Below are positions 31,591 to 52,709 of a DNA stretch of 64,000 nucleotides, piece by piece. Under the pieces are notes generated by a model that worked only from the letters and a program-made list of their open reading frames with translations, searched no databases and was not told the DNA's origin. How positions within the stretch are numbered: the first letter of the stretch is position 1; each line of letters starts with the position of its first letter. The stretch is from an uncultured Gammaproteobacteria bacterium (GTDB taxonomy: Bacteria; Pseudomonadota; Gammaproteobacteria; CAWCPV01). The stretch lies in contig CAWCPV010000006.1 of NCBI GenBank assembly GCA_963797555.1, forward strand, positions 72,102-136,101. The letters are read 5' to 3'. Position numbers and translations under genes: made by a program.

Positions 31591-31592
31591 GG

Positions 31593-32433: not shown

Positions 32434-32475
32434 GTATTTTATCACATCAGATTTATTGTCCTGCATCCGATGGCC

Positions 32476-32507: not shown

Positions 32508-32524
32508 AACAGCACATCGCGGCG

Positions 32525-33861: not shown

Positions 33862-33937
<76 letters not shown>

Positions 33938-33977: not shown

Positions 33978-34054
33978 GCCCCGGTAGCTCAGCAGGATAG
34001 AGCGTCCCCCTCCTAAGGGGAAGGTCAGCCGTTCGAGTCGGCTCCGGGGCGCCA
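33978..34054 (+). tRNA. tRNA-Arg (anticodon CCT)
   Basis: 77-nt cloverleaf: acceptor GCCCCGG/CCGGGGC, anticodon stem TCCCC/GGGGA with loop CTCCTAA, T-arm AGCCG-TTCGAGT-CGGCT, encoded CCA. Confidence 0.95.
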
Positions 34055-34480
34055 CTCTCGGGAAGTGAAGGAGGCTCGGTGCTACCGCGGTGCTACCGAA
34101 CCAAGACCGGCCGGGGCGTTACCCGTAACGCGTTACGGTGCTGTTACGATGCGCCGGCAGGCACAAAAAACCCCGCGCGGGGCGGGGTGAAGGGGGTGGG
34201 GTACTACCCTACATGCTCGGGCGAGATTGGGGCGTTAGGCGAAGCCTACGCCCGCTGTGGGTGAGCAGTGTCGAGACTTGACACGGTGATGCGGACGGTG
34301 GTTCGATCCTATTCGTGCCTACCAGCTTCAAGACGGTAACAGAGGGTTCGGGGTAACCGAACCCACACCACAACCCCGCACGCGGCGAGGTCCAGGGTGG
34401 CGGGATGTTAGGGCTACGGGGTCCGTGTTGTCTCGGCTTCTGTCAGAAACTCAGTCCAGGCGCGCATGCACTAGGCTGTC

Positions 34481-34774
34481 ATGGCTAATAATCGCAAAGC
34501 TCGAAAGCAGATCAAGACCACCGTTCGCGCCATCAGCAACGCGCTGTATGGTGCCGGTACTGTTGTTCAGCTCTGGCCTGACTGCCCCACCATGCGAAAA
34601 ATTGTGAGGTCGCCGGATGGTCGGTGGACGGTGCGTAGCTCTTCTGTCCCTGTCCACTGTGACCATGGCTATGCCTCTGATTGTGAGGCAATGCAAAGCG
34701 ACTGGGTACGTATCGGCGGGGACGTGAAGGTGGCACTCGCGAAATGGCGACGTGACTACGAAAAGAAGGGATAA
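34481..34774 (+). CDS. Hypothetical protein (97 aa)
   Basis: ORF only. First gene after the tRNAs and overlaps the next ORF. No motif recognised. Confidence 0.35.
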   Translation: MANNRKARKQIKTTVRAISNALYGAGTVVQLWPDCPTMRKIVRSPDGRWTVRSSSVPVHCDHGYASDCEAMQSDWVRIGGDVKVALAKWRRDYEKKG

Positions 34775-35180
34775 GCGCCTACCGGAGGCGAAGGATGCTT
34801 TGTCCTCGCAGGATGCTTCCTCCCATCATCAAGGGGCGCCCCAGCAAATAACAGCCAAATGGCAAGGTCCATTACCGCCTCCCGCTTTACTTGATCAATA
34901 CGAACGCACTCTGCCCGGTGCAGCCGAGCGCATTTTGGCCATGGCTGAGAAGGAACAAGGGCACCGGCACACCTTTGAGCAGTCCGCCATCCGCATTGAT
35001 GCCCGAGAAGCCTCTGTCGGGCAGTGGTTGGCGTTCGCCATCGGAGCGCTTACGATTATATGTGGCACCTACACGGCAACTCATGGAGCCCAAGTAGCCG
35101 GTGCCTTCATCGGAACCGGCGGCGTGGTTGGATTGGTTTCTGCCTTCATCTTCGGGCGGGTGCGTCGACCGCCAGATTGA
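34752..35180 (+). CDS. DUF2335-like membrane protein
   Basis: LPPPALLDQYERTLPGAAERILAMAEKEQGHRH followed by two TM helices is the DUF2335 pattern. Confidence 0.6.
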   Translation: MTTKRRDKRLPEAKDALSSQDASSHHQGAPQQITAKWQGPLPPPALLDQYERTLPGAAERILAMAEKEQGHRHTFEQSAIRIDAREASVGQWLAFAIGALTIICGTYTATHGAQVAGAFIGTGGVVGLVSAFIFGRVRRPPD

Positions 35181-35205
35181 GCTGGCGTACCGCTAGGAGC
35201 ATCTC

Positions 35206-35694
35206 GTGACCATCCGTACGACGCCGGCGAAACTTCACTGGAACTACTTCCTGGCGTTAGAGCGGGATATGGACTTAACGTCTCGCTACGTCGAATTCTG
35301 CCAATCAAACTTCTTAGCTTTTTCTATAGAGTTTGCCCATCTTCTATTTGCCGCTGCATCTGAGGTTGATGTTGTTGCGAAGCTCCTCTGCGAACTAGTG
35401 GAGCCTGCTGCGCCGAGAGGAAATATCGATGCGTACAGGTCCGTTTTGCTTCCTGCGCTGCCAAATCTTCCCGATACCGAAGTAATTGTTCTTCGCTATG
35501 GATTGACCTTCCAGCCGTGGGAGAACTGGGCTAACGGCGAGAATCCGGATTGGTGGCGCTACTACTCCCGCAAACTAGCCGCACAGCCAAATGAAGTTCT
35601 GGCCCCGAAGGACACGACGCAACAGTTGTATCCCCAGTCAGAATTGATTCGTCTCCACGGAGACTACTACCACAGATATCTAGTGGCTTCTTGA
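35206..35694 (+). CDS. Hypothetical protein (162 aa), lower-GC cargo gene
   Basis: Clean ORF with GTG start. An all-alpha, HEPN-like look (WNYFLALERDM...EVDVVAKLLC...) but no R-x4-6-H motif could be confirmed. Confidence 0.45.
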   Translation: MTIRTTPAKLHWNYFLALERDMDLTSRYVEFCQSNFLAFSIEFAHLLFAAASEVDVVAKLLCELVEPAAPRGNIDAYRSVLLPALPNLPDTEVIVLRYGLTFQPWENWANGENPDWWRYYSRKLAAQPNEVLAPKDTTQQLYPQSELIRLHGDYYHRYLVAS

Positions 35695-35838
35695 GCCCTC
35701 GGTGTGTCACGGGCAGCGCTCGCAGTCGGGGCCCGGGGCCTAACGCGGGAAGGGGCGGAGGGGTGACTGTGGGAACGAGCGTGGCGCCGGTCGGGGATGA
35801 GTAGTATCAGAAACGGCAAATCTAACCACGGATTCTTC

Positions 35839-35864
35839 AAAAAAACCCCCGGCCGAAGCCGGGG
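35839..35864 (-). terminator. Rho-independent terminator of the capsid-like operon
   Basis: The minus strand reads CCCCGGC-TTCG-GCCGGGG followed by GTTTTTTT, about 110 nt after the stop at 35976. Confidence 0.6.
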
Positions 35865-35975
35865 AGGAAGGAGCGACAGACGAAGTTGCCGCGTCGCGCC
35901 GGGGAGTGAGGCCGGCGACCGGAGCGGTGCGTCCCGCAGCCCGCGGTTCTCAGCGCAGGCGGCGGCCGGTGGGCT

Positions 35976-36182
35976 TTACTTGCGGCGCCCTACATGCCCC
36001 AGGGCGGCAGTACGCTCCTGTCCCAGCTCCAACGCCATGGCCTCGGAGCGCGACATGCAGAACAGGACTTTCGAGTCACCTACGAGCCGTTGACCCTCGG
36101 CAGCGCTGATGACACTGCGCACAAAGGCAAACGTACCGTCGTGCCGGCGGCGCATCACAACCCAGGGATCGCGTCGACTCAT
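35976..36182 (-). CDS. Hypothetical protein (68 aa), translationally coupled
   Basis: MSRRDPWVVMRRRHDGTFAFV... ATGA overlap with the upstream ORF at 36179-36182. Confidence 0.4.
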   Translation of the reverse strand: MSRRDPWVVMRRRHDGTFAFVRSVISAAEGQRLVGDSKVLFCMSRSEAMALELGQERTAALGHVGRRK

Positions 36183-36445
36183 TGCAACCCCTGCGCCGCA
36201 GGGCACAGCGTCGATCCAGCGGGTATCTCGGTCACGTCCAACGGCTGCGTAAAAAGCAGCCCGTCGCCGGTAATCATCGCAAAAACTCCAGCCGACTCCT
36301 CGGTGCAAACCGCGACGGCAGGAATCCCGGGCACAGAATCACGAAGTTTGGCCGCAACCGCAGTGGCGCATTTACGGCAAATTCCGGCATGGCGCTGGAA
36401 CGAACGCGATGCAGCTCGGACTTGGGTACGGGTCAGGGTGCTCAT
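36179..36445 (-). CDS. Hypothetical protein (88 aa), translationally coupled
   Basis: Its start overlaps the stop of the capsid-like gene (TAATG). No motif recognised. Confidence 0.4.
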   Translation of the reverse strand: MSTLTRTQVRAASRSFQRHAGICRKCATAVAAKLRDSVPGIPAVAVCTEESAGVFAMITGDGLLFTQPLDVTEIPAGSTLCPAAQGLQ

Positions 36446-37494
36446 TATGCGGTTGCCTTCACAATACCGTTCCGGCCAATTGCCTGAATCCCGGTAATGA
36501 ACTCGAATCGAAACGCTTGACCGTCATACGTTAGTGGCGTGCGGACTCGGGAAACACTCGGAGTATTCGGGAAGTTCAGCGCCATCCTGGCGATGACGGG
36601 TGCAATCGCCGGGTCACCCATTAGATAGGATGCCCCGCTCGGCAACCATGGGTTGCAGATAACTTGAATACCAGGAACGCCAGCATACAAACTCGCCACG
36701 GTGGCCGCCGCTGCGATCTCCGAATCGCCAGGGACCACCCAAAACGCAGGCTTGATATTGCCGACGTTGCCGACTCCCGTGGTGTTCGTCCGCAACTTCG
36801 CGGCCGCATTACCCAAACCCGTTATCGTGGCGACTCCACCCGAGACCGAATTGCCGGCGCCGATCAACGGTGCGCCGTCGCCCAAATTGCCGTTTGCCTG
36901 AATGACAGCGGCAATCTGCGCCGCTTCTATTCTCGCCGCATGTCCCGACAATTGCTCGGTCGCCGAAATAATAATGTCCGCGTCACCATTGATCAACATT
37001 TGGCGAGAGACGAGAAAACGCGCACCAAAAACAGAAGGCTCCCCGGTGACTCCGGCACTGGCGAGAATCGGAGCGAATTGAATCGGTCCTCCGCTCTTCG
37101 GAATAAACGAAAGCTCGCCCAGATCCAGCTCGGGAAACGAAATCGGCCTAAGATCGCGAGCTACGATGTCCCGACAAATAGAGCCATGCTCCGCAGATTG
37201 TTTATCGTAGCTGATGGCGGGAACTCGCGACAACGCGACGGCGAGAGCCTCCCCAAAATCCGACGTGGTTAGCTGTCTCGTCGCTTCGGAGCCGGTGCGC
37301 CCGCTGCCATGGCCGCTCAAATGCGCTGCGATGTCAAGCAACGAAACTCGCTCGTCCGGGCCGTTGAGCAGCTCCGCGACCGGGTGCGCGTCGGGCACGC
37401 GCTGCCCAGCTCGGAGGAGGAGAAAATCAGGCAGAGCTTCGAGAATGTCTTGCCTGGCGAACGGAATCGGTCGGGTCAATCGTGGCTCTGGCAT
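36445..37494 (-). CDS. Putative phage major-capsid-like protein (349 aa)
   Basis: Gly/Ala/Val-rich, beta-type sequence resembling HK97-fold capsid proteins (...AFWVVPGDSEIAAAATVASLYAGVPGIQVICNPWLPSGASYLMGDPAIAPVIARM...). Strong SD AAGGAGGTGA precedes ATG 37494. The assignment rests on resemblance and context only. Confidence 0.4.
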   Translation of the reverse strand: MPEPRLTRPIPFARQDILEALPDFLLLRAGQRVPDAHPVAELLNGPDERVSLLDIAAHLSGHGSGRTGSEATRQLTTSDFGEALAVALSRVPAISYDKQSAEHGSICRDIVARDLRPISFPELDLGELSFIPKSGGPIQFAPILASAGVTGEPSVFGARFLVSRQMLINGDADIIISATEQLSGHAARIEAAQIAAVIQANGNLGDGAPLIGAGNSVSGGVATITGLGNAAAKLRTNTTGVGNVGNIKPAFWVVPGDSEIAAAATVASLYAGVPGIQVICNPWLPSGASYLMGDPAIAPVIARMALNFPNTPSVSRVRTPLTYDGQAFRFEFITGIQAIGRNGIVKATA

Positions 37495-37618
37495 GGTCAC
37501 CTCCTTGATCATGGCGTTATACACATCTCCCCGTAGCTAGGGCTGCTGCCCCTCTGGACACAGCCCCCGGAAGCTGATTCAATGCCCCCATCGTTCACCA
37601 GGTGACGAGGGGGAGCAG

Positions 37619-38491
37619 ATGGAGAAGGGGTTGCCGAGGTGGTTGGGTGGGCGCGTGCTGAGCGCGGGGGAGCTTGAGAGCATACGGCGGGAGGCTCGGC
37701 TGGCGGAGCCCCGAGTGCGAGCCGAGGTGGCGCGGCGGGTGTGTCGGGTGCTGGGGTGGACCGATGCAGCCGGTAGGCCCAAGCTGATGAGCTGTCGAGT
37801 CGGGCTGCTGCGGCTGCATCGGGCAGGCTGGATCGAGCTGCCGGCGCCGCGCAACGGTAACGGCAATGGGAAGGGGCTGTCGCGCGAGCCGCAAGATTGG
37901 CCCGCTGAGGTACCGGTGGTGGGCGCAGTGCGGGATTTGCAGGGTCTGCACTTGGCGCCGGTTGCTGACCCGGCGGACTCGGCGCTGTGGAATGGGCTCA
38001 TCGACCGGTACCATTATTTGGGCTACCGGCCGCTGCCCGGTGCCCAGCTGCGCTATCTGATTCGCTGGGACGCGGGTGTGGTGGGGGCCATGGGCTTCGG
38101 GGCCGCGGCCTGGAAGGTGGGCGTGCGCGACCGCTGGATTGGCTGGGATGCGCCAAGCCGTGCGCAGCACCTGGGGCAGGTGCTGAACCATGCGCGGTTT
38201 CTCATTCTGCCGTGGGTGCGGGTGGCGAACCTGGCCTCCAAGGTCCTCGGGCGGGCCGCGCGGCAGGTGCCGGGCGAGTTCGAAGAGCGCTACGGGGTAC
38301 GCCCGGTGCTGCTGGAGACCTTTGTCGAGGCCGGCCGGTTCGCGGGCACCTGCTACCGGGCGGCCAACTGGCATCATCTGGGGCAGACCACCGGGCGGGG
38401 CAAGCTCGACCGTGAGGCGCTGCCCATCAAGGATGTCTATGTGTATCCGCTCGATGGCCGCTTTCGCCGGGCGCTCGGGGGAGCCGCATGA
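37619..38491 (+). CDS. DUF4338 (DruA-like) domain protein, first ORF of the IS
   Basis: WNGLIDRYHYLGYRPLPGAQLRYLI...RDRWIGWD...NHARFLILPWVRVANLASKVL...TCYRAANWHHLGQTTGRGK. ATGA overlap with the transposase at 38488-38491. Confidence 0.7.
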   Translation: MEKGLPRWLGGRVLSAGELESIRREARLAEPRVRAEVARRVCRVLGWTDAAGRPKLMSCRVGLLRLHRAGWIELPAPRNGNGNGKGLSREPQDWPAEVPVVGAVRDLQGLHLAPVADPADSALWNGLIDRYHYLGYRPLPGAQLRYLIRWDAGVVGAMGFGAAAWKVGVRDRWIGWDAPSRAQHLGQVLNHARFLILPWVRVANLASKVLGRAARQVPGEFEERYGVRPVLLETFVEAGRFAGTCYRAANWHHLGQTTGRGKLDREALPIKDVYVYPLDGRFRRALGGAA

Positions 38492-39822
38492 ATGCCCTGG
38501 CCGAGGAGCTGGCCGCCATCGACTTGGGTGATGCGCGCCTCAACCGCCGGGCGCGACGCACCCTGGAGAAGCTGGGAGCCCATCCCATGCAGAGCATTCC
38601 CACCGCCTGTGGCGGCTGGGCCGAGACCTTGGCGGCTTATCGGCTGTTCGACCATCCCCAGGTCACCGCCCAGGCGGTGCTCGAGCCCCATTACGCCTGC
38701 ACCGAGCAGCGTATGCGCGAATACTCGGTGGTGCTGTGCATCCAAGACACCACGGAAGGGGACTATAGCGGCAAGAACGACATCGTCGGGCTGGGCCCGC
38801 TCAACTACGAGACCCGCCGTGGATTGTACCTGCACCCCACCCTCGCCGTGACCCCCGAGCGGGTGCCCTTGGGGCTATTGGATCTATGGAGCTGGACCCG
38901 CGAGGCGGGCAGTCTGGGCAAGGAGCAGGGCCGCCGGCCCATCGAGGAAAAAGAGAGCCTGCGCTGGCTGGAGGGTTATCGACGCGTCTCGGAGCTCATC
39001 GAGTCCCTGCCCGAGACCCAGTTGGTCTATGTCGCCGACCGCGAGGCCGACATCTACGAGGTGCTCGCGGAACGCGCCGCCACGCAGCCCTGCGCCGAGT
39101 GGCTCATCCGCGCCGAGCGCGCCCGGCTCGCAAGCGCGCCGGTGCTGGCCGAGGCCGAATTCGACCTGCCCGCCACCGCTAGGCGTCCGGCGCGGCGCAT
39201 CCACCAGCAACTGCGCGTCGCACGCCTCACTTTCAAGGCCCCGCATCGCTCGGACCGCACCCTGGCGGACATCGAGGTGAGCGCCGTGCTGGCCCGCGAG
39301 GTGGACCCGCCCCAGGGCGAGGAGCCCATCGAGTGGCTGCTCCTCACCAGCCTCCCCGTCGAGACCGCCGAGCAGGCCCTGGAGAAGCTCCAATGGTACC
39401 TCTGCCGGTGGCAAATCGAGGTGTTCTTCAAGATCCTCAAAAGCGGCTGCCGCATCGAGAAGCTGCAGCTCGAGACCCTCGAACGCCTGGAGCCCGCGCT
39501 CGCCTTCTACCTCATCATCGCCTGGCGGGTGCTCTACCTCACCCTGCTCGGGCGCGACTGCCCGCAGATGCCCTGCAACGTGGTGTTCGCCGAGGAGGAA
39601 TGGCGCGCGGTGTATATCGTCACCAAGCGCCAGCCCCCGCCTGAGACACCCCCCTCGCTCGATGCGATGGTGCGTATGGTGGCGAGCTTCGGCGGCTTCC
39701 TCAATCGCAAGGGCGACGGCTTCCCGGGTCCGCAAAGCCTGTGGATCGGGCTGCAGCGAACCCGCGACTTCGTGCTCGCCATGGACGCACAACGGGCCTC
39801 ACAGAGCCCGAGATGTGTATAA
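38488..39822 (+). CDS. IS4-family (IS50/Tn5-like) transposase
   Basis: N-terminal LGDARLNRRA DNA-binding motif. DDE residues in context (IQDTTE, VADREADIYE) and a YLCRWQIEVFFKILKSGC signature. The stop codon lies inside the right IR, as in IS50. Confidence 0.85.
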   Translation: MNALAEELAAIDLGDARLNRRARRTLEKLGAHPMQSIPTACGGWAETLAAYRLFDHPQVTAQAVLEPHYACTEQRMREYSVVLCIQDTTEGDYSGKNDIVGLGPLNYETRRGLYLHPTLAVTPERVPLGLLDLWSWTREAGSLGKEQGRRPIEEKESLRWLEGYRRVSELIESLPETQLVYVADREADIYEVLAERAATQPCAEWLIRAERARLASAPVLAEAEFDLPATARRPARRIHQQLRVARLTFKAPHRSDRTLADIEVSAVLAREVDPPQGEEPIEWLLLTSLPVETAEQALEKLQWYLCRWQIEVFFKILKSGCRIEKLQLETLERLEPALAFYLIIAWRVLYLTLLGRDCPQMPCNVVFAEEEWRAVYIVTKRQPPPETPPSLDAMVRMVASFGGFLNRKGDGFPGPQSLWIGLQRTRDFVLAMDAQRASQSPRCV

Positions 39823-40230
39823 GGACATGCCTTGATGCCCTATCAGACCGTGCCTGGAACCGCAATTGCTGCGGGTATTTTTCAGTATCTCGTAAGGCTG
39901 GCGACGCGATGTCGGGACATGGCAGCCCGAAGCCAGGACAGCTTGAACTGTTGCGCCAACATCGCCCGTGCGAACCTTGCGACGTAGCAAGATTGAGATC
40001 TGCCCGGCGAGCGCCCACGTGGACCGCGAGCCGGTAGGGTCCACCAGCTCCCCAAGCCTGGCAATCGCGGAATCTCGCAACTGACGGGCGCCCGGGCCCG
40101 CCAGATCCAGGGCGTGCTCTAGGTCCTCACCGGACTGCCAACGGGTCAACGCCTCCGTGATCCAGCCGGCGAGACCCGGGTCGTGGACCCGGGCCAGCGC
40201 GACGAGCTGGTTGAGCCGAGATCGGCTCAT
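39799..40230 (-). CDS. Hypothetical protein (143 aa as read); the last 10 or so codons come from the inserted IS
   Basis: The ORF runs across the IS right junction at 39829/39830, so its native C-terminus is replaced. Confidence 0.35.
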   Translation of the reverse strand: MSRSRLNQLVALARVHDPGLAGWITEALTRWQSGEDLEHALDLAGPGARQLRDSAIARLGELVDPTGSRSTWALAGQISILLRRKVRTGDVGATVQAVLASGCHVPTSRRQPYEILKNTRSNCGSRHGLIGHQGMSLYTSRAL

Positions 40231-40430
40231 CTTGGAATGGGCGATGCCGTCGGTGGTGATGTCGGTGGTGGTTGTGGTCGCACCGAATGTGCGCCAAGGA
40301 CCGCATGAGCGTGGAGCAGCGAGGTCAACGCCTTGTCGGCCGCCTCGAAGGAGGCGATAACATCGCCCTTGTGCGCCGGCTTTAGGTGGCCTTCAATCTC
40401 GTCATACAGCGTTTGAAGTTGAATCAGCAT
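40227..40430 (-). CDS. Hypothetical protein (67 aa)
   Basis: MLIQLQTLYDEIEGHLK... An AGGTG SD is present. ATGA overlap with the downstream ORF at 40227-40230. Confidence 0.35.
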   Translation of the reverse strand: MLIQLQTLYDEIEGHLKPAHKGDVIASFEAADKALTSLLHAHAVLGAHSVRPQPPPTSPPTASPIPR

Positions 40431-40444
40431 AATCGCGCACCTCG

Positions 40445-40978: not shown

Positions 40979-41063
40979 CGTACGAACTCCTTAGGGAAGT
41001 GTTAGCCTACGGATTTATCGCCGGCTTGCTCGCTCGCAGCGAAGGGACGCCAGGAGAACCTAG

Positions 41064-41540
41064 TCATCGCAGCCCGCCCTCCGCCAGCGCCGCCAACACA
41101 TCGCCGTGACACGGGAGCGGAGAACACCAGCAGCCCAAGCGTTTTCCTCGAAGCTCTGGCAGCCGGGCCATCAGCTCCGGTTGGGTCAGTATCCAAGCCC
41201 GGTACTTCGCGATGACCTCCGCGCGATCCCCGTCGCGGCCGATGCGATAGGGGTTCGCCCATGGGGATGCGGGCAATCCAAGGCGCGGGACGGCGCGGCC
41301 AATGTACACGTTGTATGGCTCACGCTGGCAGTGCACCACACTTGTCGTGCTCACGCGGTCCGCCCAGGGCTCCACCGTCGCGTCCGGATACACCTTGGCG
41401 ATGATGGCGCGGGCCTCAGCCGGAATGGCGGCCGGCACGAAGTCGAAGGTGCGGGTGGTGCCGTCCGGGAGGGAGGCGAGAAAGCGCCAGGCTTTTGGCA
41501 CTTCTGGCACTGCCTGGTGTGGCACATCCGTGAATTTCAT
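41064..41540 (-). CDS. DUF4326 domain protein
   Basis: C-terminal VVHCQREPYNVYIGR...SPWANPY...RLGCWCSPLPCHGDVL. Start set at ATG 41540 (SD AAGGGGG). The ORF can be read up to 41747, but that part is low-complexity and coincides with a repeat array. Confidence 0.55.
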   Translation of the reverse strand: MKFTDVPHQAVPEVPKAWRFLASLPDGTTRTFDFVPAAIPAEARAIIAKVYPDATVEPWADRVSTTSVVHCQREPYNVYIGRAVPRLGLPASPWANPYRIGRDGDRAEVIAKYRAWILTQPELMARLPELRGKRLGCWCSPLPCHGDVLAALAEGGLR

Positions 41541-41693
41541 ACCCCCTTCGACGGCCTCTTCCACCCGGTCATCGACACCATGAATTTTTGCGGATGTGCC
41601 AGGGGGGGTAGTGCCAAAAGTGCCAGAAGGGTCACTTTTCAGGCTTTCGGCACTTCTGGCACTGGGGGGTGTGCCACATTTCAGAATTTTCAG
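41488..41693. repeat. Iteron-like array: two 53-bp direct repeats plus nine TGGCAC/GTGCCA hexamers
   Basis: Units at 41488-41540 and 41640-41693 share CAGGCTTTyGGCACTTCTGGCACTG...GTGTGsCACAT...AATTTyCA. The palindromic core is GGCACTTCTGGCAC. Hexamers start at 41496, 41505, 41520, 41596, 41611, 41620, 41649, 41657 and 41671. Confidence 0.55.
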
Positions 41694-41719
41694 TCTGGCG
41701 ATAGCGTCCATGGTCGTGG

Positions 41720-43462
41720 TCAGATCAGGCTCGGGTGGATGGTCCATACGGTCGTTTTTCTGCCCCCGGTCTCGACAGTCTCCCCCCTAACCCAGCCGTG
41801 ATCAGCTAATACTTCCAGTGCGTCATCGGTGCCGGTGCGGTCTAGCAACCGCCAATGATGGCGGTATATCTCCCGAGCTGTGACTGGGCTTACCACGTCC
41901 CGGGCGAGGATGTGTTGAGCCAGCTCGCGTGCACAAGCTAAGTCGGGGTCCAGTGCCGTGGCGTATAGCCTTCTGGCATGGCATTCCAGGTACTCAGCCC
42001 ACGCGATAGCAGCGACTAGCGGCGTCTCACCGACCGGTCCGGTGCCCATGTCGGCAAGATGGATCAGCAGTGCCAGCGACGGGATCAAGCTTCGATACTT
42101 CGCCAGGTGCGCCTCAAAGGCAACGTGCTCCTCTTCGTCCCTCAGCCTCTTTTCCAGCCCCGCGCGCCATGCGTTGAACACGCTTTGCGCGTCCTCAGCA
42201 AATCGCAGGAAGGGGATGCTGCCCTCTTCATGGGTCGCTCCGATGGCGGCCGGCACGAGGCTGTCCATCCGTGTGAACACATCCCACGCGGCACGCCTGG
42301 CCTCCGTGTCTGGCCAACGGTCCACATGGCGCCAATCACCAGATACGTCGGGCCAGACAACGAGCTGAAAACGCTGCAAGAGACCGTCGTCTCCTACGCC
42401 TCCGGCGAGCGCACCACGCAGGTATTCTTGCAGGGGGCCAGGCTGAATGCCCCCGAGAACAGAAACGCAACACGACTCGATGTCGATAGTGCCGCGTCCA
42501 ATTCGGTCAAACGTATAACGCCCGCTGCCGTTCCACGCCTCTAGAAAAAATGCCCGAGAACACTCCCAGCCCTCCCGGTCCAAAGATCGCAGCAGCCCAG
42601 TCAGCTCGTCGCGGAACAGCAGCAAGCCCCGCGGGTTTGCAGCCAGAAGTTCGCCCAGCGCCTCGACCGTGCTGTCGTTCGCTACGTATCGGCAGCGCCG
42701 GGGCGGGCCTTCCTCGTCAACCGTCGCTGCGGTCGCAAGTCGGTATGCTTCCTCTTCGTCGCCTCGCTTCAATGCCGAGTCAATGGCTTTTTGAGCCTTC
42801 TTCGCGGCTGACTTGTCCACCACTGAGCCGGCCTTGCTGCGAAGCAACGCCTCGTCGTATGTCTCCTTGGCGACGTGCTCCAGACGGAGAAGAGGCCGCG
42901 TCGCCTCGGCAAGCGCTGGGGTCTTGAGAAGCCCCGGCCGACCGATGACGCCACCCCATAAATTTGGGATGACTAGCCAATCATCGCGCCGCTTTGGACG
43001 AATACCGATCTGCCGGCCGACAACCGCAGCGAGCGACACCATGGATGCCACGGCAGGAAAGTCCGGGGGGCATTGCATCCTCTCCGCAATGTCCTCCACC
43101 CATGGGCGGAACGCGTCTGGCATCAAGATCGGGTCGAAGCTCGGCACGCTGGGCAGACCATCAGGGAGCGGCTCTGGGTTGGGCCAGTCAAGATGATCCG
43201 CCCCGTTCGCCCGTTGGTCAGTGCCGTTCGCCCGCAGTCCTAGCCTCTGGGCCAGCCACTGCGCCGCGGCCTTGGGCGCGCTGGCGCTGCCGAACCGCAG
43301 CACGACATCGATAGGCGTCAGTCCGTCCTCTTCCCCAAAGTCTCGGATACCCTGGGGCAGCAGGCTCAAGTCCTCCTCCAGGTCGCGTCCCAGGTCCTTC
43401 GACGAGACTCGATACCCGTCCTGATGCGCGCGCACTGGGGAACAGCTCCGGTGCCCACGCAC
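41720..43462 (-). CDS. DUF3987 (YfjI-like) replication/helicase-loader-type protein of mobile elements
   Basis: VIPNLWGGVIGRPGLLKTPAL (P-loop-like), DELTGLLRSLDREG, SVLGGIQPGPL. The true start is uncertain because the first 30 or so codons overlap the upstream ORF in another frame. Confidence 0.65.
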   Translation of the reverse strand: MRGHRSCSPVRAHQDGYRVSSKDLGRDLEEDLSLLPQGIRDFGEEDGLTPIDVVLRFGSASAPKAAAQWLAQRLGLRANGTDQRANGADHLDWPNPEPLPDGLPSVPSFDPILMPDAFRPWVEDIAERMQCPPDFPAVASMVSLAAVVGRQIGIRPKRRDDWLVIPNLWGGVIGRPGLLKTPALAEATRPLLRLEHVAKETYDEALLRSKAGSVVDKSAAKKAQKAIDSALKRGDEEEAYRLATAATVDEEGPPRRCRYVANDSTVEALGELLAANPRGLLLFRDELTGLLRSLDREGWECSRAFFLEAWNGSGRYTFDRIGRGTIDIESCCVSVLGGIQPGPLQEYLRGALAGGVGDDGLLQRFQLVVWPDVSGDWRHVDRWPDTEARRAAWDVFTRMDSLVPAAIGATHEEGSIPFLRFAEDAQSVFNAWRAGLEKRLRDEEEHVAFEAHLAKYRSLIPSLALLIHLADMGTGPVGETPLVAAIAWAEYLECHARRLYATALDPDLACARELAQHILARDVVSPVTAREIYRHHWRLLDRTGTDDALEVLADHGWVRGETVETGGRKTTVWTIHPSLI

Positions 43463-44196: not shown

Positions 44197-44382
44197 GTCA
44201 CGCAGCCTCGCCCGCGTCGAAGCGCCGCGTCCGCCGCGCTAAAAGCGCGTTAAGGTCACTCAGACGGTACTGACAGGTCCGCCCCACGCGGATGTAAGGC
44301 AACGCGTTGCGGCCGCTCGATGCCCAAAGCTCTAGGGTTCGAACCGGAACGCGGAGATACTTTGCGGCTTCTTCGCGAGTTA

Positions 44383-46392
44383 GCCCGACTTCGCGGATTC
44401 GCACGGCGATTGGCCCGCTGGCCAGGGGTAAGTGATTGTTTGTGGGGACCGTGGTGAGCCAAAAAGGGTTGAAACGCGCTGTAGTGAAGACCTTGCTTGT
44501 TTTCAAGGGGAAAAATCTGCGGATAATGATGTTCCATCATGTTTCTACGGGCCACGACGCGGAAGAAAGACGGCAAGGAGCACCGTTACTGGAGTATTGT
44601 CGAGAATAGGCGCCTGAGCGGTGGGCGCGTGCTGCAACGGCATGTGCTGTATTTGGGTGAGATCAACTCCTCGCAGGAGTTGGCGTGGCGCAAATCCATT
44701 GAGGTGTTCGAAGACGGGGCGCTGACACCGCGCACGATGTCGTTGTTTCCCGAGGAGCGATCTGAAGAGCTGTCGAGGGATGCTTCGGTGGTACGTTTGC
44801 GGCTGAAAGAATTGCGGCTGTGCCGACCGCGGCAGTGGGGTGCGTGTTGGCTGGCGCTGCAACTGTGGGAGGAATTGCAGTTAGATCGCTTCTGGTGGGA
44901 ACGGTTAACGCCGAGTCGCAAGGGCACTCGGTGGGATCAGGTGTTATTCGTGCTCGTGGCCTATCGGTTGCTGGCACCGGGCAGCGAGTGGCGGTTGCAC
45001 CGGGAGTGGTTTGGCCGTACGGCCTTGACGGATTTGCTCGGAGCGGATGCGGCGCTCTCCGACAGCCACCGGCTGTATGTCTGTCACGACCGCTTGCTGG
45101 AGCACAAGGCGGCGGTCTTTGACCATCTGGTGCGGCGGTGGCGGGATCTGTTCAATGCCACCTTCGAGGTGCTGCTCTACGACCTCACGAGCACCTACTT
45201 TGAGTGTGAGCCCCCGCAGTCGGAGCAGGACAAACGACGATTCGGCCACTCGCGCGATAAGCGCAGGGACTGTGTGCAGGTGGTGATCGCCTGGGTGGTG
45301 ACCCCGGAAGGCTTGCCCTTGGCCTATGAAGTGTTGGCGGGCAATACGGCCGACAAGACGACGTTGAAGGAGTTCCTCGCGCGCATTGAGCGTCAGTACG
45401 GAAGAGCGCAGCGGATTTGGGTGATGGACCGCGGCATTCCGACCGAAGCGGTGCTGGAAGAGATGCGCGCAAGTCGCCCGCCAGTGCACTGACCTGGTGG
45501 GCACGCCCAAGGGGCGGCTCAGCAAATTGGAGAGCGCGCTGCTGCTCAAGCCGTGGCGGGAAGCGCGCCCCGGCGTAGCCGTGAAACTGTTGGCGCAGGA
45601 TGGGGAGCTGTATGTGTACGCGCAAAGTGAACAGCGCGTGGCGAAGGAGCGTGCGATACGACGGCGCAAGCTGAAGTGGTTATGGGCGCGGTTGAAGAAA
45701 CTCGCGACCATGCAGCTCACCCGCGAGCAACTGCTGATGAAGCTCGGTGCGGCGCGCCAACACGGCCCAGCGGTATGGCGCTTGGTTCAACTGGAGGTCG
45801 ACCCCAAGGACGCCACGTTTAGCTACCGCCTGCGCCGCGATAAGCTGCGTGAAGTGCGCCGGCGCGAAGGACGGTATCTGCTGCGCACCAATCTCACCGA
45901 CACCGATCCCGCCAAGCTATGGGGGTTTTACCTGCAACTGGTGGCGGTGGAAGAAGCGTTCAAGAATCTCAAGGGGGATTTGGCCATTCGGCCAATCTTT
46001 CATCAACACATCGAGCGTATCGAAGCCCATATCTTCATTGCCTTTCTTGCCTATTGTCTGCATGTCACGCTCGGGCGACGTTTGCATGCGCTCGCGCCTG
46101 GATTAACCACGCGCAGCGTGCTGGAGAAATTCGCCGCCGTGCAGATGGTCGACGCACAGGTGCCGACCACCGATGGGCGCGAATTGACGTTCACCCGCTA
46201 CACCCAACCTGAGCCAGAACTGCAACTGCTCCTCGCGCAGTTGAAGCTCGAACTGCCCGCACCACCAGCTCCGAAAATCAGCACCGCCCACACTGCCTCA
46301 GCCGCCGCGATGTAGTGCAGACCTTGCCAGGCGCCCTCTCGCAATTTCAACCACTTACGCTATCCCTACCCCGCGAATCCGCGAAGTCGGGC
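44383..46392 (+). mobile_element. IS1634-like (IS4 superfamily) element with perfect 20-bp IRs
   Basis: The left IR GCCCGACTTCGCGGATTCGC (44383-44402) is the exact reverse complement of 46373-46392. TA flanks both ends (44381-82 and 46393-94). Confidence 0.8.
44539..46315 (+). pseudogene. IS1634-family transposase, frameshifted at 45490
   Basis: The N-terminal MFLRATTRKKDGKEHRYWSIVENRR... runs to ...EEMRASRPPVH then TGA. The next frame continues LVGTPKGRLSKLE... CACTGACCTGGTG looks like CACTACCTGGTG with 1 nt inserted. Confidence 0.75.
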
Positions 46393-46488
46393 TAGGCGCG
46401 GGTCCGGGTCAACGAAAGGCATTTTTGCTCACCTCACGGGCTGTCAACTTGCGGTGAGATGAGTAAAACAGCGAAGGCGGCCTTGAAC

Positions 46489-47142
46489 TTAGCTCGTGTC
46501 CGTTTTTTTGTTGAGAATGCGCCGAACCTGGCGCACGCTCTTGTCCACGCGGCGTGCAATTTTTGACGCCCACTCGTGACGTGGGGTCGTTCCTGCCCGC
46601 TCGAAGGCTCCGGCCGCGTTCAGGACGCGGGCCTCGGTGTTCCTGCCCCGCACGATGCCGGCGTTGACCCCCCCTTTGTGGCGCCCTGTTTGCACGCGAC
46701 GCCCGTGCCCCGCGTTGGTCTCGTGGGGCCTGACATGAGCCCTGCCCACTGCGAGCCCCAGGTTGACCGCAAGATGAGCGAGCAACCTCCGGTCCGCTGC
46801 GCGGTCCCCGATGGCCTGCTTGACGTGCTCGCAGCCCTCTAACACATCCCTGGCGTCGCGGCCTTCGTCGGGTAGGCTCGTCCGGTCCAGGGTCCGCCAC
46901 AGCCGGGCGTCATAGCCGAGACGCTCAAGCCTTCGTCTGGCCTCTGCCTCCCAGGAGGCCAGGATAGCGGGAAACCGTGCGGCGCTGGTCTCGTTGAACT
47001 GCCTCAGCGCCTCTTCCCTGTCGTGCTCCCGCTCCCGCCACTTCTTCCACCAGCGCTTGGGTGTCGCCGGCCACTTCTCTAACGGCTCCGGGCCAAGCGG
47101 CTCGGTTTGCTCCTCGAAGAACTCAGAAACGCGCCGGGTCAT
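46489..47142 (-). CDS. Hypothetical protein (217 aa) with a C-terminal HTH-like segment
   Basis: ATGA overlap with the integrase stop at 47139-47142. C-terminal KIARRVDKSVRQVRRILNKK. No family recognised. Confidence 0.45.
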   Translation of the reverse strand: MTRRVSEFFEEQTEPLGPEPLEKWPATPKRWWKKWREREHDREEALRQFNETSAARFPAILASWEAEARRRLERLGYDARLWRTLDRTSLPDEGRDARDVLEGCEHVKQAIGDRAADRRLLAHLAVNLGLAVGRAHVRPHETNAGHGRRVQTGRHKGGVNAGIVRGRNTEARVLNAAGAFERAGTTPRHEWASKIARRVDKSVRQVRRILNKKTDTS

Positions 47143-48361
47143 GTGCCGGTCTTGATGTCTTGCACGTCGGCGATCGGCAGCACGCCCGCGGCGGCCAGCA
47201 TGGCGCGGGTGGCCTTCTCGAGGGACGCCCGCACTGGGTCCAGGTTCAGCCTGGCGTAAATGGCGGTGGTGCTGACGTTCGAGTGCCCCAGGCTCTTGCC
47301 GATAGTGACGAGGCTTGCCCCGGTGGCGGCCTGCCAGCTCCCGAGCGACCGGCGCAAGTCATGAAGGTGCAGGTCCTCGACGCCCGCACGTTTCTTGACC
47401 GCTACCCATGCCCGCTTGGGCTCGACCATGTGCCCGGTCTTGCCCCGGCTCGGGAAGATCCACGGGCTGTCCCCGGCGAACACGCGGCGAGTTTCGAGTA
47501 CCGCGACGGCCTCCGCTACCAACGGGACCGTCAGGGCCTCGCCGGTCTTGGTCTGCGGGATGCGCCAGGTGGCCTCTTCGATCCGCACGTCTTCCCAGCG
47601 CATGGCGAGCACGTTGCTGCGCCGGGCGCCGGTCAGCAGAGCGAGCAACAGGAAGTCGCGCGTGTCCCGCGGGGCCTGCGCGACGGCCTCGAAGAACCGG
47701 GGAAGCTCGCTCGGCTGCAGAAAACGATCGCGGGAGCGCTCCCGGAACTTGGTGACTCCTTCGGCCGGGTTGTCACCCTTCCACAGCTCCCAGGCGATGG
47801 CGCGGTTGAACATGGCCCGCAGCATGGAAACGGTCTTGTTGGCGGTGGTGTGTCCCTCTCCCGCCCCAGGCGCATATGCAGCGCCCGCACCTCGGAACGG
47901 CTGATGGCGGAAAGCTTCCGGCTCGCCCACGGGGCGAGGTACAGGCCCCAGTAGCTCTCGGGGTTCTTGGTCCGCTTGCCTTGAGCCTTGATGTGCTCTT
48001 CGAGGTATTGCTGGTATAGCTCCCCCAGGGTCAGCTCTGCCCGCTTGGCGCGCAGGGCGGCCTGCGGGTTGTCCCCCGAGGCGATGGCGCCGTTCAGCTT
48101 CTCGGCTCTTTGGCGTGCCAGGAATACCGTCATGGCGGGCCAGCGCCCGAGCAGCACGCGCTCGGGCTTACCGTCCAGCTTGCGGTAGAGATAGAAGCTC
48201 TTGGCGCCGCTCGGCTGCACACACAACGCCAGGTGCGGCGTCTTGGAGTCGTAGAAGTAAGTGCGCACCGGGTCGGGGGCGAGCGCCTTGACCACTGAGA
48301 TACCGGCACTTGAGGAGATGGGAGGCCGTCGAGTGCGCCAAGGGGGATCTGGAGGAACCAT
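47139..48361 (-). pseudogene. int: P4-type tyrosine integrase, frameshifted near 47857
   Basis: The N-terminal arm/SAM-like part (...LALCVQPSGAKSFYLYRKLDGKPERVLLGRWP...) is in one frame. The catalytic part (LLTGARRSNVL...HDLRRSLGS...LGHSNVSTTAIYARL) is in another. The switch occurs in GGGCGGGAGAGGGAC. Confidence 0.8.
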
Positions 48362-49148
48362 GTCCGGGTACCCTCACTTTAATCTTCCGTGAAACGCAAT
48401 GGATGAGTACTCTCTGGAATCGTTCGAGCACTATATTGAACTGGTAGGGCACGGATCGCCAGGTAAACTGCGGTTGTTTCGCGGTCAATCCACGGATGAA
48501 CCTCTGCTTCCCAAATTGGCTCGCTTGCGACTGCGCTCTGCTATAAGAATAGAAATAGCAGAAAAACGCATGTATGAGGATTTCAGACGAAGAAGTCTTC
48601 CGTTTCTGGAACATGTGCCAAGTACTACATGGGATTGGCTGGCATTGATGCAACACTCATGGACTGGCCACCCGCCTTCTTGATTGGACGGCAAACCCGC
48701 ATGCCGCGCTGTGGTTTGCAACGGAAAAGGGCTCTTTCGGTAATTGTGTGGATCGTGGTGGTCGAGTAGCATCCGTTCTGAGCAATCGTCTATCACAACA
48801 TCTTGTGGTTGGGCCTGTGGGGTTGTGGGCGAGAGGCCCGCGAGTGTGGGCAACCGGGAGGTTGTCCACACGGTCCTTGGGACGCGGGCCGCTCCGCAGG
48901 ACTCGTCCACAAATCCACAGGCCATCAAGGGGGGAGCGCCATGGAGCCAACGCATCTATTCACGACGGCACTGGGCCTCACGGCGCCTTGGGAAGTCACC
49001 AGCGTACGCTTTGACCCCGAGGCTGGGCGCATCGACCTCGAGGTGGCCTTTGCCAAGGGGAGCCGCTTCGCCTGCCCGGCGTGCGGAGCGCCAGGCCAGC
49101 CGGTGCATGATACCCGCAAGCGCAGCTGGCAGCACCTGAGCTTCTTTA

Positions 49149-50250
49149 CTAAGTCCATTTTAAGTAAAGCCATATGTTGGTACAATGGGGGCATGAAATG
49201 CAAGCGCGAATCGGACGGGCGCAAGCTCGATCATAGGAGCCTGCAGGTGCTGCGCCAGCAAGCCGTGAAAGCGGTGCGTCACGGACAGACGGTACAGAGC
49301 GTAGCGCAGGCCTTCGGGTTGAACATTCGCACCGTGTTTCGCTGGCTCTCGGCATTTGCCTCGGGGGGACAGAACGCGCTGTTGGCCAAGCCGATCCCGG
49401 GCCGCCCGCCGCTGCTTGGCGCCGAGGAGATGCGCTGGCTGGCGGGGGCGGTGCGCGAGCACACGCCGCAGCAGTTCCGATTCGAGTTTGCGCTGTGGAC
49501 CCTGCCGCTCATCGGCAGGTTGATCGAGCGGCGGTTCAACAAGCGCCTTTCGGACTCCGCCGTCAGGCGGGTGATGCGGGTGCTGGGATTCACTGCCCAG
49601 AAGCCGCTCTACCGTGCCTGGCAGCGCGATCCGGTGCTGGTCGAGCGCTGGCAGAAAGAGCAATTTCCCGCCATCCAGGCCGAGGCCAAGCGCGTGGGGG
49701 CAACCATCTACTTTGGGGATGAGTCGGGGATGCGCTCCGACTACCACGCCGGCACCACTTGGGCGCCGATGGGCAAGACCCCGGTGGTCGCGGTGACCGG
49801 GGCGCGGTTCTCGCTCGCCATGCTCTCGGCGGTGAGCGCCCGCGGGGGCTTGCGCTTCATGGTGCACGAGGGGACGGTGACCGCCGCGGTGTTCAAGGAA
49901 TTCCTCAAGCGCCTGCTGGTGGGCGCCACCCGGCCGGTCTTCCTCATCGTCGATGGCCATCCCATCCACAAGGCACGATTGATCCAGGACTTCATCGGCG
50001 AACAGAACGGGCGCCTTAAGCTGTTCTTCCTCCCCCCGTACTCGCCCCAACTCAATCCCGACGAACAGGTTTGGGGGCATGTGAAAGCCCGCGTCGCCAA
50101 GCGCCGGGTGGAAAGCAAAGAGGATCTCAAGAGCAAACTCCTCGGTGCTTTGCGCCGGCTCCAGAAGCTGCCAGAAATCGTCAAAGGCTTTTTCATGCAT
50201 CCGCATTGCTGCTACGCTGTCTGATATGGCCTTACTTAAGAAAGGATTAG
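49149..50250 (+). mobile_element. IS630-family element nested inside ISL3 copy B at a TA
   Basis: Copy A reads TTCTTTAAGTCACGG. Here it reads TTCTT-TA-[CTAAGTCCATTTTAAGTAAAGCCATAT...ATATGGCCTTACTTAAGAAAGGATTAG]-TA-AGTCACGG. Imperfect 27-bp IRs. Confidence 0.85.
49193..50224 (+). CDS. IS630-family transposase (343 aa, apparently intact)
   Basis: HTH N-terminus and DDE region (IYFGDESGM...FLIVDGHPIHK...LNPDEQVW). Confidence 0.85.
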   Translation: MKCKRESDGRKLDHRSLQVLRQQAVKAVRHGQTVQSVAQAFGLNIRTVFRWLSAFASGGQNALLAKPIPGRPPLLGAEEMRWLAGAVREHTPQQFRFEFALWTLPLIGRLIERRFNKRLSDSAVRRVMRVLGFTAQKPLYRAWQRDPVLVERWQKEQFPAIQAEAKRVGATIYFGDESGMRSDYHAGTTWAPMGKTPVVAVTGARFSLAMLSAVSARGGLRFMVHEGTVTAAVFKEFLKRLLVGATRPVFLIVDGHPIHKARLIQDFIGEQNGRLKLFFLPPYSPQLNPDEQVWGHVKARVAKRRVESKEDLKSKLLGALRRLQKLPEIVKGFFMHPHCCYAV

Positions 50251-52162
50251 TAAGTCACGGGCAGACCTGCACGCGCATCTGCCGCGAGTGCGCTGTGAGA
50301 GCTGCGGCAAGACGACTCAGGTCGAGCCGCCGTGGGCGCGCGCACACAGTGGCTTCACGGCGCTGATGGAGGCACTGGTGGTGACGCTGTGCCAGGCGAT
50401 GCCGGTGGCGACCGTCGCCCGGCACCTGGGCGTGGGCGATGAGCGCCTGTGGGGGGTGCTCGAGCACTACGTGGAGGCGGCCCGCGCCTAGGAGGACCAC
50501 TCCCCGGTGCGCGCCGTGGGCCTGGACGAGACCGCCGCCCGGCGTGGGCAGCACTACATCAGCCTGTTCCATGACCTCACGGGCAAACGCCTGCTGTTCG
50601 CCTGCGAGGGCCGCGACCAGAGCACCGTGGCGGCCTTTGCCGCCGACCTCCAGGCGCACGGGGGCGACCCGCAGGCCATCGAGCAGGTGTGCATCGACCT
50701 GTCCGCCGCTTATCTCGCCGGGGTGACCAAGCATCTGCCTAAAGCCACGGTGAGCTTCGATGCCTTCCATGTCATCCAGCTCGCCAACCAGGCCGTCGAT
50801 ACAGTGCGCCGCGAGGAGGTCAAGACCGAGCCCGCCCTCAGGGGCACCCGCTGGACCTGGCTCAAAGACGCCCACGACTGGACCTGGGAGCAGCTCACCG
50901 ACTTTCACTGGCTCTCCCGCGCCCGCCTCAAGACCGCCCGCGCCTGGCGCCTCAAGGAGGCGCTGCGCGATATCTACGCCACGGCCAGCACCCTCGAGCA
51001 GGCCGAGACCGCGCTCACGCGCTGGTATAGCTGGGCACGGCGTAGCCGCCTGCAACCCATGAAACACCTCGCTGCCACTCTGAAAGACCACTGGGACGGT
51101 GTGCTCGCCGCGTTCGACTCCGGCCTCACCAACGGCCGCGCCGAGGGCATCAACTCCCTCATCCAGGCCGCCAAAGCCCGCGCCCGGGGCTACCGCACCA
51201 CGCGCTCGCTCATCACCATCGCCTACCTCATCGCGGGCAACCTGGCCCACTTGCCGGCCTCGCCGTTCAACACACGATCTTGTGTCAGACCTCAGGCAGA
51301 GGCTGCCGCAGCGTAAGCATATCTACCCACACGATTCCGGTAAGAACCCGGAAAAGCCACCGAAGAAAGACAAGAACGATGAACCAAGGTCGGGCGTGGT
51401 TTGGGTATTTCGACCCGCTGGTCCAGATATGGTTGATATCGCGAAATCACGAGATCCCTTTCAAGCCACGCGAACGCAGGTATTTCAGCCAAGCCATATC
51501 ACTCGCCGCATCATTGCGCAATTCGGTTGGTTTACGGCACACAAACTCATAGACGGAGAGAAGATTGTGCCACTGGAGGACAATGGCCTCTACGAGAAGA
51601 AGCTAACGAAAATAATGATCCAACCGGAAATGTTTTCGAAGATGAGATCTACGTTAAATATATTTGGCATAAATTCAGGCGTGCTATTTCCAGACCTTGT
51701 TGGTTTGTGTGAAGCCATACAATGGGAAAGCTCTTGTTTGGAAGACGAAAAGCCAGGACTACGCAAACCAGTGCTATTCTTTCAAAGCGATGGGCCGATA
51801 AAAATCCGCCGTAAGCCCCGGCCGACGCGGATAAAGCTGCGGCCGATCAGGGGGTAGCACGCAAAGAGGAACCGCCCGCGCCGGGGTCCGGGATTTCGGT
51901 CGCCCCGCCATGCCACATGCGGTGGCTGGCGTCTCACGCGGGCTACGATGGTGTTACGCTCGCACGTCCACGCTTACCCTGCTCTTCCTCGACTTCCCTG
52001 ACGAGCGCTCGCGCTCAGCCCAATGCGGCCAGTATTTCCAGGGGTGACGCCAGGATGGCCGCTTTCCGGCCGTGAGGGACGCGAACGGGGGTGGGGCGGG
52101 GGACTTATGGGCGGGCGTGGGGTTAGGGGAGTAATTATTGCGGAATACGAATGCAGACTACC

Positions 52163-52202
52163 AAAAAAAGCCCCCAGAGTTCGTCTGGGGGCACTTTTTT
52201 TT
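52163..52202. terminator. Bidirectional rho-independent terminator downstream of dsrE2-like gene
   Basis: A7-GCCCCCAGAG-TTCG-TCTGGGGGC-AC-T8. Confidence 0.65.
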
Positions 52203-52699: not shown

Positions 52700-52709
52700 G
52701 GCAGACCTC

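Follow-up and report, generated by a model that had tools for sequence, protein, structure and literature searches.

Gram-negative phage-inducible chromosomal islands (PICIs) carry a single homologue of a capsid protein, such as c1499 of EcCICFT073, which is accompanied by a head decoration gene, or the homologue of PmCI172, an island that forms small capsids with a Mu-like helper phage; some of them also encode a small terminase subunit (TerS) (PMC6092414). The PICI model of SatelliteFinder rests on int, a regulator, pri-rep, capsid morphogenesis and terS as its five core components and treats portal, head-tail connector, tail and holin genes as forbidden components; terS ahead of the capsid gene is noted as a variant arrangement (PMC10085698). 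The capsid paralogue Ccm of SaPIbov5, a Staphylococcus aureus pathogenicity island (SaPI), is thought to enter helper capsids and to alter their size (PMC6893505). Here we describe an element of about 18.1 kb located at approximately 34.06-52.16 kb of a 64,000-nt stretch of contig CAWCPV010000006.1 (the whole stretch of DNA that was analysed, hereafter the window). Judged by gene content and layout, we consider that this span is probably an integrated phage satellite that follows the plan of Gram-negative PICIs and whose core has been inflated by the insertion of four insertion sequences (IS), since family, fold and layout evidence agree on this point. The element is not a new kind of system; it is a known kind of element in a new host lineage, the host being an uncultured sulfur-oxidising proteobacterium.

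The core genes, from int to orf68, all lie on the minus strand with int first, an arrangement consistent with unidirectional transcription. Their order is int, orf217, an alpA-like helix-turn-helix (HTH) gene, a primase gene, a DUF3987 helicase gene, two sets of iterons, a DUF4326 gene and terS, followed by orf67, orf143, the gene of a major capsid protein (MCP), orf88, orf68 and a terminator (Table 1). When the IS are subtracted, the island measures about 11.3 kb and the stretch from int to the terminator about 8.4 kb. Many open reading frames (ORFs) of the window are spurious because the DNA is GC-rich (GC 0.60-0.68), and real genes were therefore chosen by the GC content of codon positions and by family matches. 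A preliminary description of this DNA had listed the same genes in this order, on this strand and at these positions, and every gene that it named was found. The satellite logic that it drew from the combination of integrase, AlpA, primase/helicase, private TerS and capsid gene is borne out by the family, fold and layout evidence presented below.

The 349-aa protein that had been described as capsid-like was analysed by profile comparison and by structure prediction. In addition to its Pfam match, it matches PHROG 4523/133 and NCBIfam NF045541 (positions 280-630 of 634, E 7e-26), that is, the C-terminal capsid half of the prohead protease/major capsid fusion families of PHROG and NCBIfam. An AlphaFold2 (AF2) model built from a 40-sequence alignment reached a mean predicted local distance difference test score (pLDDT) of 92.6 and a predicted template-modelling score (pTM) of 0.87. 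When this model was submitted to Foldseek, it matched many solved HK97-fold capsids of the PDB with a probability of 1.00 (target template-modelling score, TM, up to 0.66) and viral MCPs of BFVD with the same probability (TM up to 0.68). On the basis of its predicted structure, the protein is thus an HK97-fold major capsid protein homologue, and the structural similarity to phage proteins on which the preliminary description had made its interpretation depend is present. The MCP of the island is a standalone protein and its phage relatives are protease-scaffold-MCP fusions.

The Foldseek matches with an HK97 fold also include encapsulins and the capsid of EcCI2, a capsid-forming PICI (cfPICI). 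The protein could hence be viewed as the shell of an encapsulin-like nanocompartment, or as part of a cfPICI-like head whose other components are encoded elsewhere. However, sequence families group the MCP with the phage protease-MCP fusions, its neighbours are TerS and small ORFs rather than cargo enzymes, and no prohead protease, head-tail adaptor or connector, portal or large terminase subunit (TerL) was recognised in the island with Pfam, PHROGs and NCBIfam. Both possibilities appear extremely unlikely to us, and the encapsulin and cfPICI readings were rejected.

The MCP gene belongs to a packaging/capsid operon that includes terS and is closed by an intrinsic terminator. The start and stop codons of the MCP gene, orf88 and orf68 overlap successively. 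Neither orf88 and orf68 nor orf67 has a family match; orf143 has none in Pfam and PHROGs, and its AF2 model (pLDDT 49) is unusable. Searches with the same three family collections (Pfam, PHROGs and NCBIfam) assigned no ORF of the island to portal, head-tail connector, large terminase, tail or lysis/holin families, five small ORFs being without assignment. The absence of portal, large terminase and tail genes noted in the preliminary description is thereby supported. The same description had placed a single capsid gene outside the classic PICI layout; this view has to be abandoned, since PICIs with exactly one such gene have been described (PMC6092414, PMC10085698). With regard to P4-like satellites, which are recognised by a psu-delta-sid operon, epsilon and a primase of the alpha type, no ORF matched Psu, Sid, Delta or Epsilon in Pfam or PHROGs.

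The remaining core genes correspond to integration, regulation and replication. A 1-nt shift in a G-run, at about 47854-47856, causes the P4-type tyrosine integrase to be read as a pair of overlapping ORFs. The neighbouring orf217 has no family match in Pfam, PHROGs, NCBIfam or PADLOC, and exact-sequence look-ups of orf217 and of the C part of int returned no second copy on record. The primase-like protein carries a DxD motif (FVAFDVDG); sequence searches of the PDB with this protein and with TerS returned nothing. In a three-frame reading of their junction, the ORFs of primase and helicase share 97 nt (43366-43462), suggesting that they may be a single fused gene broken by indels. Iteron sets lie directly past the stop codon of the helicase, on the 3' side of its gene. 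They correspond to the repeat array of the preliminary description, which is real: eight exact TGGCAC/GTGCCA hexamers are found within 230 nt, as compared with 0.66 per kb over the whole window. We consider 41490-41700 as a putative replication origin. The DUF4326 gene, next in order, likely starts at the ATG at 41540, which is preceded by GAAGGGGG.

The four IS represent about 6.8 of the 18.1 kb (approximately 37% of the span). The Tn5/IS4-like element is placed precisely so that orf143 lies on one side and the ribosome-binding site of the capsid gene on the other; it encodes a DruA/DUF4338-like protein and a 444-aa transposase, whose Pfam transposase domains were recognised in L001, a metagenome contig of sample ERZ25039463 that is 99.8% identical to the window. 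The DruA/DUF4338-like passenger ORF (37619-38491, plus strand; Pfam DruA, E 3e-44) is translationally coupled to the transposase. The IS1634-like element separates orf217 from the alpA-like gene, and its transposase is split into ORFs of 317 aa and 272 aa (45492-45497). All four IS, including the ISL3-family element within the FRG-domain gene and the IS630-family element nested in it, carry target-site duplications, and once they are removed, either an uninterrupted frame or intergenic sequence is recovered. This identifies them as simple insertions through which nothing was deleted, and the satellite would have been colonised by four IS without gene loss. The insertions are shared by L001 wherever it overlaps the window, which indicates that they are real. 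An IS of the DDE_Tnp_1_4 type abuts window position 46396 in L001, showing that strains differ in IS content. Outside the island, two copies of this type (17.5-18.6 kb and 55.4-57.0 kb of the window) are 86% identical to each other, and a second ISL3 copy (13053-14190, minus strand) shares 89-91% identity with the copy that interrupts the FRG gene. A group II intron D1-D4-6 RNA (17146-17383, plus strand; Rfam 72.9 bits, gathering score 49) is found in an IS-rich stretch.

Frameshifts have to be considered differently. L001 and the window differ by eight indels in 10.9 kb, and in most cases the window version gives the intact ORF. Besides int, the FRG gene contains a 1-nt indel near 48657, and dsrE, a flanking core gene, is frameshifted in comparison with its homologues in three related genomes (L014, L071 and L076). 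A further apparent frameshift was seen in the C-terminal third of hsdR (window 6489-10019). These observations suggest that the assembly is indel-prone and that indel errors are common in such assemblies; hence the frameshifts are no evidence of decay, and apparent pseudogenes in this region should not be trusted. Neither the four IS nor the reading of int as two overlapping ORFs appeared in the preliminary description, so that the element seemed more intact there than it is in the sequence.

In order to place the capsid gene, we turned to its relatives. A profile search of 1.84 billion representatives with the MCP gave 2984 relatives (cluster representatives), of which 81 had E values under 1e-30. 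Among the 150 top-ranked ones, almost every protein is standalone and 330-390 aa long, and the N terminus of the island MCP is common to other standalone members. Word-indexed protein searches returned two matches for the MCP, seven for the 40-sequence alignment and two for a 12-sequence alignment. No MCP relative was found in the genome contigs or viral contigs scanned, and a single 1.2-kb locus was found in the metagenome contigs. As these contig scans returned so little, genomic contexts are limited to L001, L003 and L087.

L003 (ENA ERZ25039463, 1-16266) comes from the same sample as L001 and is a 17-kb element whose MCP is 47% identical to that of the window. An orf143 homologue (43% identical, E 8e-33) lies immediately upstream of this standalone MCP gene. 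L003 also encodes ProQ, a primase-helicase of 851 aa, an HNH nuclease, a topoisomerase-like protein of 483 aa, a TrfA-like protein and an HTH_17 protein. Genes for an integrase, a portal or a tail were not seen in this element, which may be a plasmid-borne satellite. In L087, an orf143-like gene and a standalone MCP gene directly follow a GpA-type large terminase gene, with no portal gene in between. Comparison by hhalign of the orf143 family with the N-terminal half of the protease-MCP fusions revealed no relation. The pair is thus present in three backbones, namely the PICI-type island, the TrfA/prim-pol plasmid-like L003 and L087. Our hypothesis, based on these three contexts only, is that orf143 and the MCP gene form a portable cassette. 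The broader proposal that an orf143-like gene and a PF25209 MCP of about 345 aa constitute a "capsid-hijack cassette" defining a large undescribed group of satellites is put forward tentatively, and we hold it to be doubtful. If most of the relatives found by the profile search resided in satellites and not in phages, this would be a widespread strategy against phages with a protease/scaffold-fused capsid protein.

MCP relatives of the fused type were found in two further loci. The phage-like L085 contains a protease-fused MCP relative together with a PHROG-57 TerS, a GpA TerL, a lambda-type portal and a cement protein. L086 (JGI 3300037499, 1466-10649) encodes a GpA-type TerL and an AAA_25 primase/helicase in addition to a portal, a protease-MCP fusion and a cement protein; its 14.5 kb contain no tail genes, it is adjoined by an EPSP synthase gene, and it looks like a capsid-forming (cfPICI-like) satellite.

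The occurrence of MCP relatives in complete lambda-like head modules such as that of L085, in addition to the IS load and the several frameshifts of the region, could be an indication that the island is the remnant of an ordinary prophage, in which TerS and the capsid gene were left after deletion of the structural genes. Yet only two small ORFs with overlapping codons stand between TerS and the MCP, with no fragments of portal, TerL or protease genes, and every IS is a clean insertion with duplications, not a deletion scar. Moreover, the MCP has the standalone form with the N terminus of other standalone members, the same orf143 and MCP pair occurs in two other contexts that are not phage-like, and the replication module (primase, DUF3987 and iterons) is of the P4/PICI type and not phage-like. 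Such a remnant is therefore very unlikely, and this explanation was also rejected.

If the island is a satellite of the PICI type, its cycle would be as follows. A helper phage would switch on the alpA-like regulator, the P4-type integrase would excise the island, and the primase and the DUF3987 helicase would replicate it from the TGGCAC iteron origin. The TerS of the island would then bring the GpA-type large terminase of the helper to island DNA. The standalone MCP, possibly with orf143, would join helper procapsids and alter their size or usability, or block helper packaging, in a role akin to that of Ccm of SaPIbov5 and of the capsid homologue of PmCI172; the helper would contribute portal, protease, TerL and tail. 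As L085 combines an MCP relative with such a head module, the helper is probably a phage whose head module is lambda-like and comprises a PHROG-57 TerS, a GpA TerL, a lambda-type portal, a protease-scaffold-MCP fusion and a cement protein. The island therefore points to a probable type of helper, recognisable by a lambda-like head module with a protease-MCP fusion.

The insertion was delimited by synteny. In several relatives, among them an Ectothiorhodospiraceae metagenome-assembled genome (MAG; L014) and two Thiohalomonadaceae MAGs (L071 and L076), genes for an M48 peptidase, tusA, dsrE, an outer-membrane protein and a 299-aa protein follow one another, all within 2-4 kb. The distance from dsrE to the 299-aa gene is 19 kb in the window, and the span is consequently an insertion relative to these genomes. 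The best relatives of the 299-aa gene, which flanks the island on the left, among GTDB species representatives are only 50-62% identical, none of them being a close relative. The comparison with related genomes proposed in the preliminary description thus established the insertion, but not the tRNA target, the tRNA pair being absent from this site in the relatives. Short repeats just past tRNA-Arg (34077-34152) may be binding sites for a recombinase or an excisionase, and the tRNA-like fragment at 34304-34328 may, on weak grounds, be an old attachment site (att) remnant; no second copy of this fragment was found in the window and Rfam makes no tRNA call there. A strong minus-strand terminator (34170-34188) lies about 120 nt from the 3' end of tRNA-Arg, with no obvious gene upstream on the same strand. 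The surroundings (window 26196-33424 and 52219-52940), as read by eye and by tblastn to relatives, form a sulfur-oxidation neighbourhood with radical-SAM, lipoate-protein ligase-like, GcvH-like, DsrE-like and TusA genes.

Cargo genes are present at both ends of the island, as had been anticipated, and Pfam confirms both the FRG and the DUF2335 assignments. At the tRNA end, the cargo is convergent with the capsid operon; its DUF2335 protein (Pfam, E 3e-17) also matches the membrane proteins of PHROG 3996 (E 3e-35). At the other end, the FRG gene sits outside int, and the rejoined product of 276 aa matches PADLOC PDC-S15 over nearly its full length (E 2e-80), which makes it a candidate defence gene. 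Its location corresponds to that of PICI cargo, the interval from att to int being where PICIs are reported to carry defence genes (PMC10085698). Further away, type I restriction-modification genes (HsdS-like and HsdR-like) with a Fic-domain gene between them were read by eye from the translations at window 2931-10019.

The presence of this candidate gene beside int, the link between PICI capsid homologues and interference (PMC6092414), and the fact that neither a pac or cos site nor a helper was identified in the window could mean that the whole locus is a defence island, in which TerS and the capsid homologue only block phages by poisoning assembly or packaging and the DNA itself is never packaged. 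A private TerS together with autonomous replication and an integrase is nevertheless the standard packaging kit of satellites (PMC6092414, PMC10085698), and interference and transfer do not exclude one another in known PICIs. A purely defensive role is, in our opinion, unlikely.

Several observations weigh against our interpretation of the island as a PICI-type satellite. We infer induction, replication, packaging and capsid redirection from homology and layout, and no helper phage lies within the 64-kb window. The regulator is matched by HTH_17/excisionase models and not by the Pfam Phage_AlpA model. Likewise, Pfam Phage_Nu1 does not match TerS, so that the "Nu1-like small terminase" of the preliminary description stands as a small terminase (PHROG 57) and is Nu1-like at the PHROG level only; no pairwise similarity was detected between this TerS and that of L085. 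The closest deposited phage protein, a "protease and major capsid protein" of a Paracoccus phage, is only about 26% identical to the MCP. At the boundaries, the tRNA pair is absent from the syntenic site in all relatives found via the 299-aa gene, and for this reason the pair cannot be demonstrated to be the original integration target. As the preliminary description had pointed out, int lies at the end distal from the tRNA and the limits are imprecise: they can be placed with an accuracy of a few hundred bases at best, and neither direct repeats, nor fuzzy matches to the tRNA 3' ends, nor local alignment gave an att repeat above shuffled controls. The ends may be degraded. Finally, present-day activity is doubtful given the IS insertions and frameshifts. 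The element as sequenced is probably not mobile now, because IS part alpA from int and orf217, and orf143 from the capsid gene, and split the defence gene, and because int is frameshifted, although this frameshift may be an assembly error.

Table 1. Positions in the window of the features of the island and of its borders.
Feature	Position	Strand	Evidence and remarks
tRNA-Ala(CGC)	33862-33937	+	ARAGORN; Rfam
tRNA-Arg(CCT)	33978-34054	+	ARAGORN; Rfam tRNA 63.4 bits; left limit of the inserted region
Short repeats, CGGTGCTACCG twice, then four GTTAC/GTAAC motifs	34077-34152		Tandem Repeats Finder (TRF) and sequence; directly past the tRNA
tRNA-like 3' fragment GGTTCGATCCTATTCGTGCCTACCA	34304-34328	+	T-loop, T-stem, acceptor and CCA geometry read from the sequence
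Low-GC cargo: orf97, DUF2335 membrane protein (34752-35180), orf162	34481-35694	+	GC 0.56-0.60
Intrinsic terminator	35846-35865	-	8-bp stem with 7 GC pairs, T7 tail; closes the packaging/capsid operon
orf68	35976-36182	-	ORF list; same gene called in L001
orf88	36179-36445	-	ORF list; same gene called in L001
HK97-fold MCP (predicted), 349 aa	36445-37494	-	Pfam PF25209, E 6e-20
Tn5/IS4-like IS	37510-39829	+	20-nt inverted repeats; 7-bp duplication CCTTGAT
orf143	39799-40230	-	Upstream of MCP; last ~10 codons now IS-derived
orf67	40227-40430	-	Between terS and orf143; also called in L001
TerS, 177 aa	40445-40978	-	PHROG 57, E 8e-16, residues 25-169
DUF4326 protein	41064-41540	-	Pfam, E 3e-26; PHROG 464
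TGGCAC/GTGCCA iteron sets	41490-41700		Two to three sets, oppositely oriented, flanking a spacer that includes an AT-rich patch
DUF3987 helicase-type replication protein, 580 aa	41720-43462	-	Pfam, E 2e-85, full profile; PHROG 2373 DNA helicase
Primase-like protein, 276 aa	43366-44196	-	PHROG 3228/256/9765, best E 1.6e-14
AlpA-like HTH_17/excisionase-family regulator	44198-44404	-	Pfam HTH_17, E 5e-9; TIGR01764, E 1e-7; PHROG 66
IS4/IS1634-like IS	~44497-46310 (limits approximate)	+	Pfam DDE_Tnp_1; flanked by the 17-nt direct repeat TGTAGTGNAGACCTTGC
orf217	46489-47142	-	Between int and alpA; pattern of third-position GC (GC3)
P4-type tyrosine integrase	47139-48361	-	Pfam Arm-DNA-bind_3, E 2e-11 (N part); Pfam Phage_integrase, E 3e-28 (C part)
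FRG-domain gene	48399-51857 (coding parts 48399-48729 and 51357-51857)	+	Pfam FRG; split by ISL3
ISL3-family IS	48730-51348	+	8-bp duplication CGGAAAAG; inverted repeats; splits the FRG gene
IS630-family IS nested in ISL3	~49148-50253		30-nt inverted repeats; TA duplication
Right island end	51858-52169		Bracketed by the stop of FRG (51857) and by the dsrE terminator; synteny, tblastx against L014, L071 and L076
dsrE terminator	52170-52192		Conserved flank
dsrE	52219-52699	-	Conserved flank

Among known systems, the island most resembles the Gram-negative PICIs (Fillol-Salom et al. 2018, PMC6092414). Both have int at one end, unidirectional transcription, an AlpA-type regulator and a primase/replicase. 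In both, the replication gene is followed immediately on its 3' side by an iteron origin, putative in the island, whose two iteron sets enclose an AT-richer spacer. One capsid homologue, terS (in some PICIs) and accessory or defence genes at the ends are likewise shared, and portal, tail and lysis genes are missing from both. The median size of PICIs is 9.5 kb; in the IS-free island, int and the last core gene delimit about 8.4 kb. Differences are nevertheless observed. The host of the island belongs neither to the Enterobacteriaceae nor to the Pasteurellaceae but is an uncultured sulfur-oxidising proteobacterium, and the replication protein of the island is of the AEP-like (archaeo-eukaryotic primase-like) primase plus DUF3987 type. 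Its capsid homologue belongs to the PF25209 lineage and has a conserved partner, orf143; in addition, terS is placed ahead of the capsid gene, and neither a homologue of the head decoration gene nor the att site was found.

Other satellites share only part of this plan. SaPIbov5 also encodes an HK97-fold paralogue of the helper capsid protein, Ccm, without portal or protease (PMC6893505), but it is a Gram-positive SaPI with another backbone, and a Ccm-like role of the island MCP is something we infer. The cfPICIs have the same left-hand module (int, alpA-type regulator and primase) and their own capsid protein and TerS; unlike the island, they also carry portal, protease, head-tail adaptor/connector and large terminase genes (PMC10085698). 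P4-like satellites are similar in their P4-type integrase, AlpA-type regulator, primase-helicase with an iteron origin, size of about 11 kb and defence gene beside int, whereas P4 has no capsid-fold protein and no TerS, and the island has no psu, delta, sid or epsilon. The marine virion-encapsidated integrative mobile elements (VEIMEs) and PICMIs (minimalist phage-inducible chromosomal islands) are also small integrative elements with an integrase, AlpA, primase/helicase and sometimes TerS (PMC9618062, PMC10803314), but they encode no major capsid protein, and full-size capsids take them up as concatemers. Together, these comparisons would extend the PICI-type satellites that bear a capsid homologue beyond the Enterobacteriaceae and Pasteurellaceae, where they have mainly been documented so far, the mildly new part being the conserved cassette of an orf143-like gene and a standalone MCP gene.

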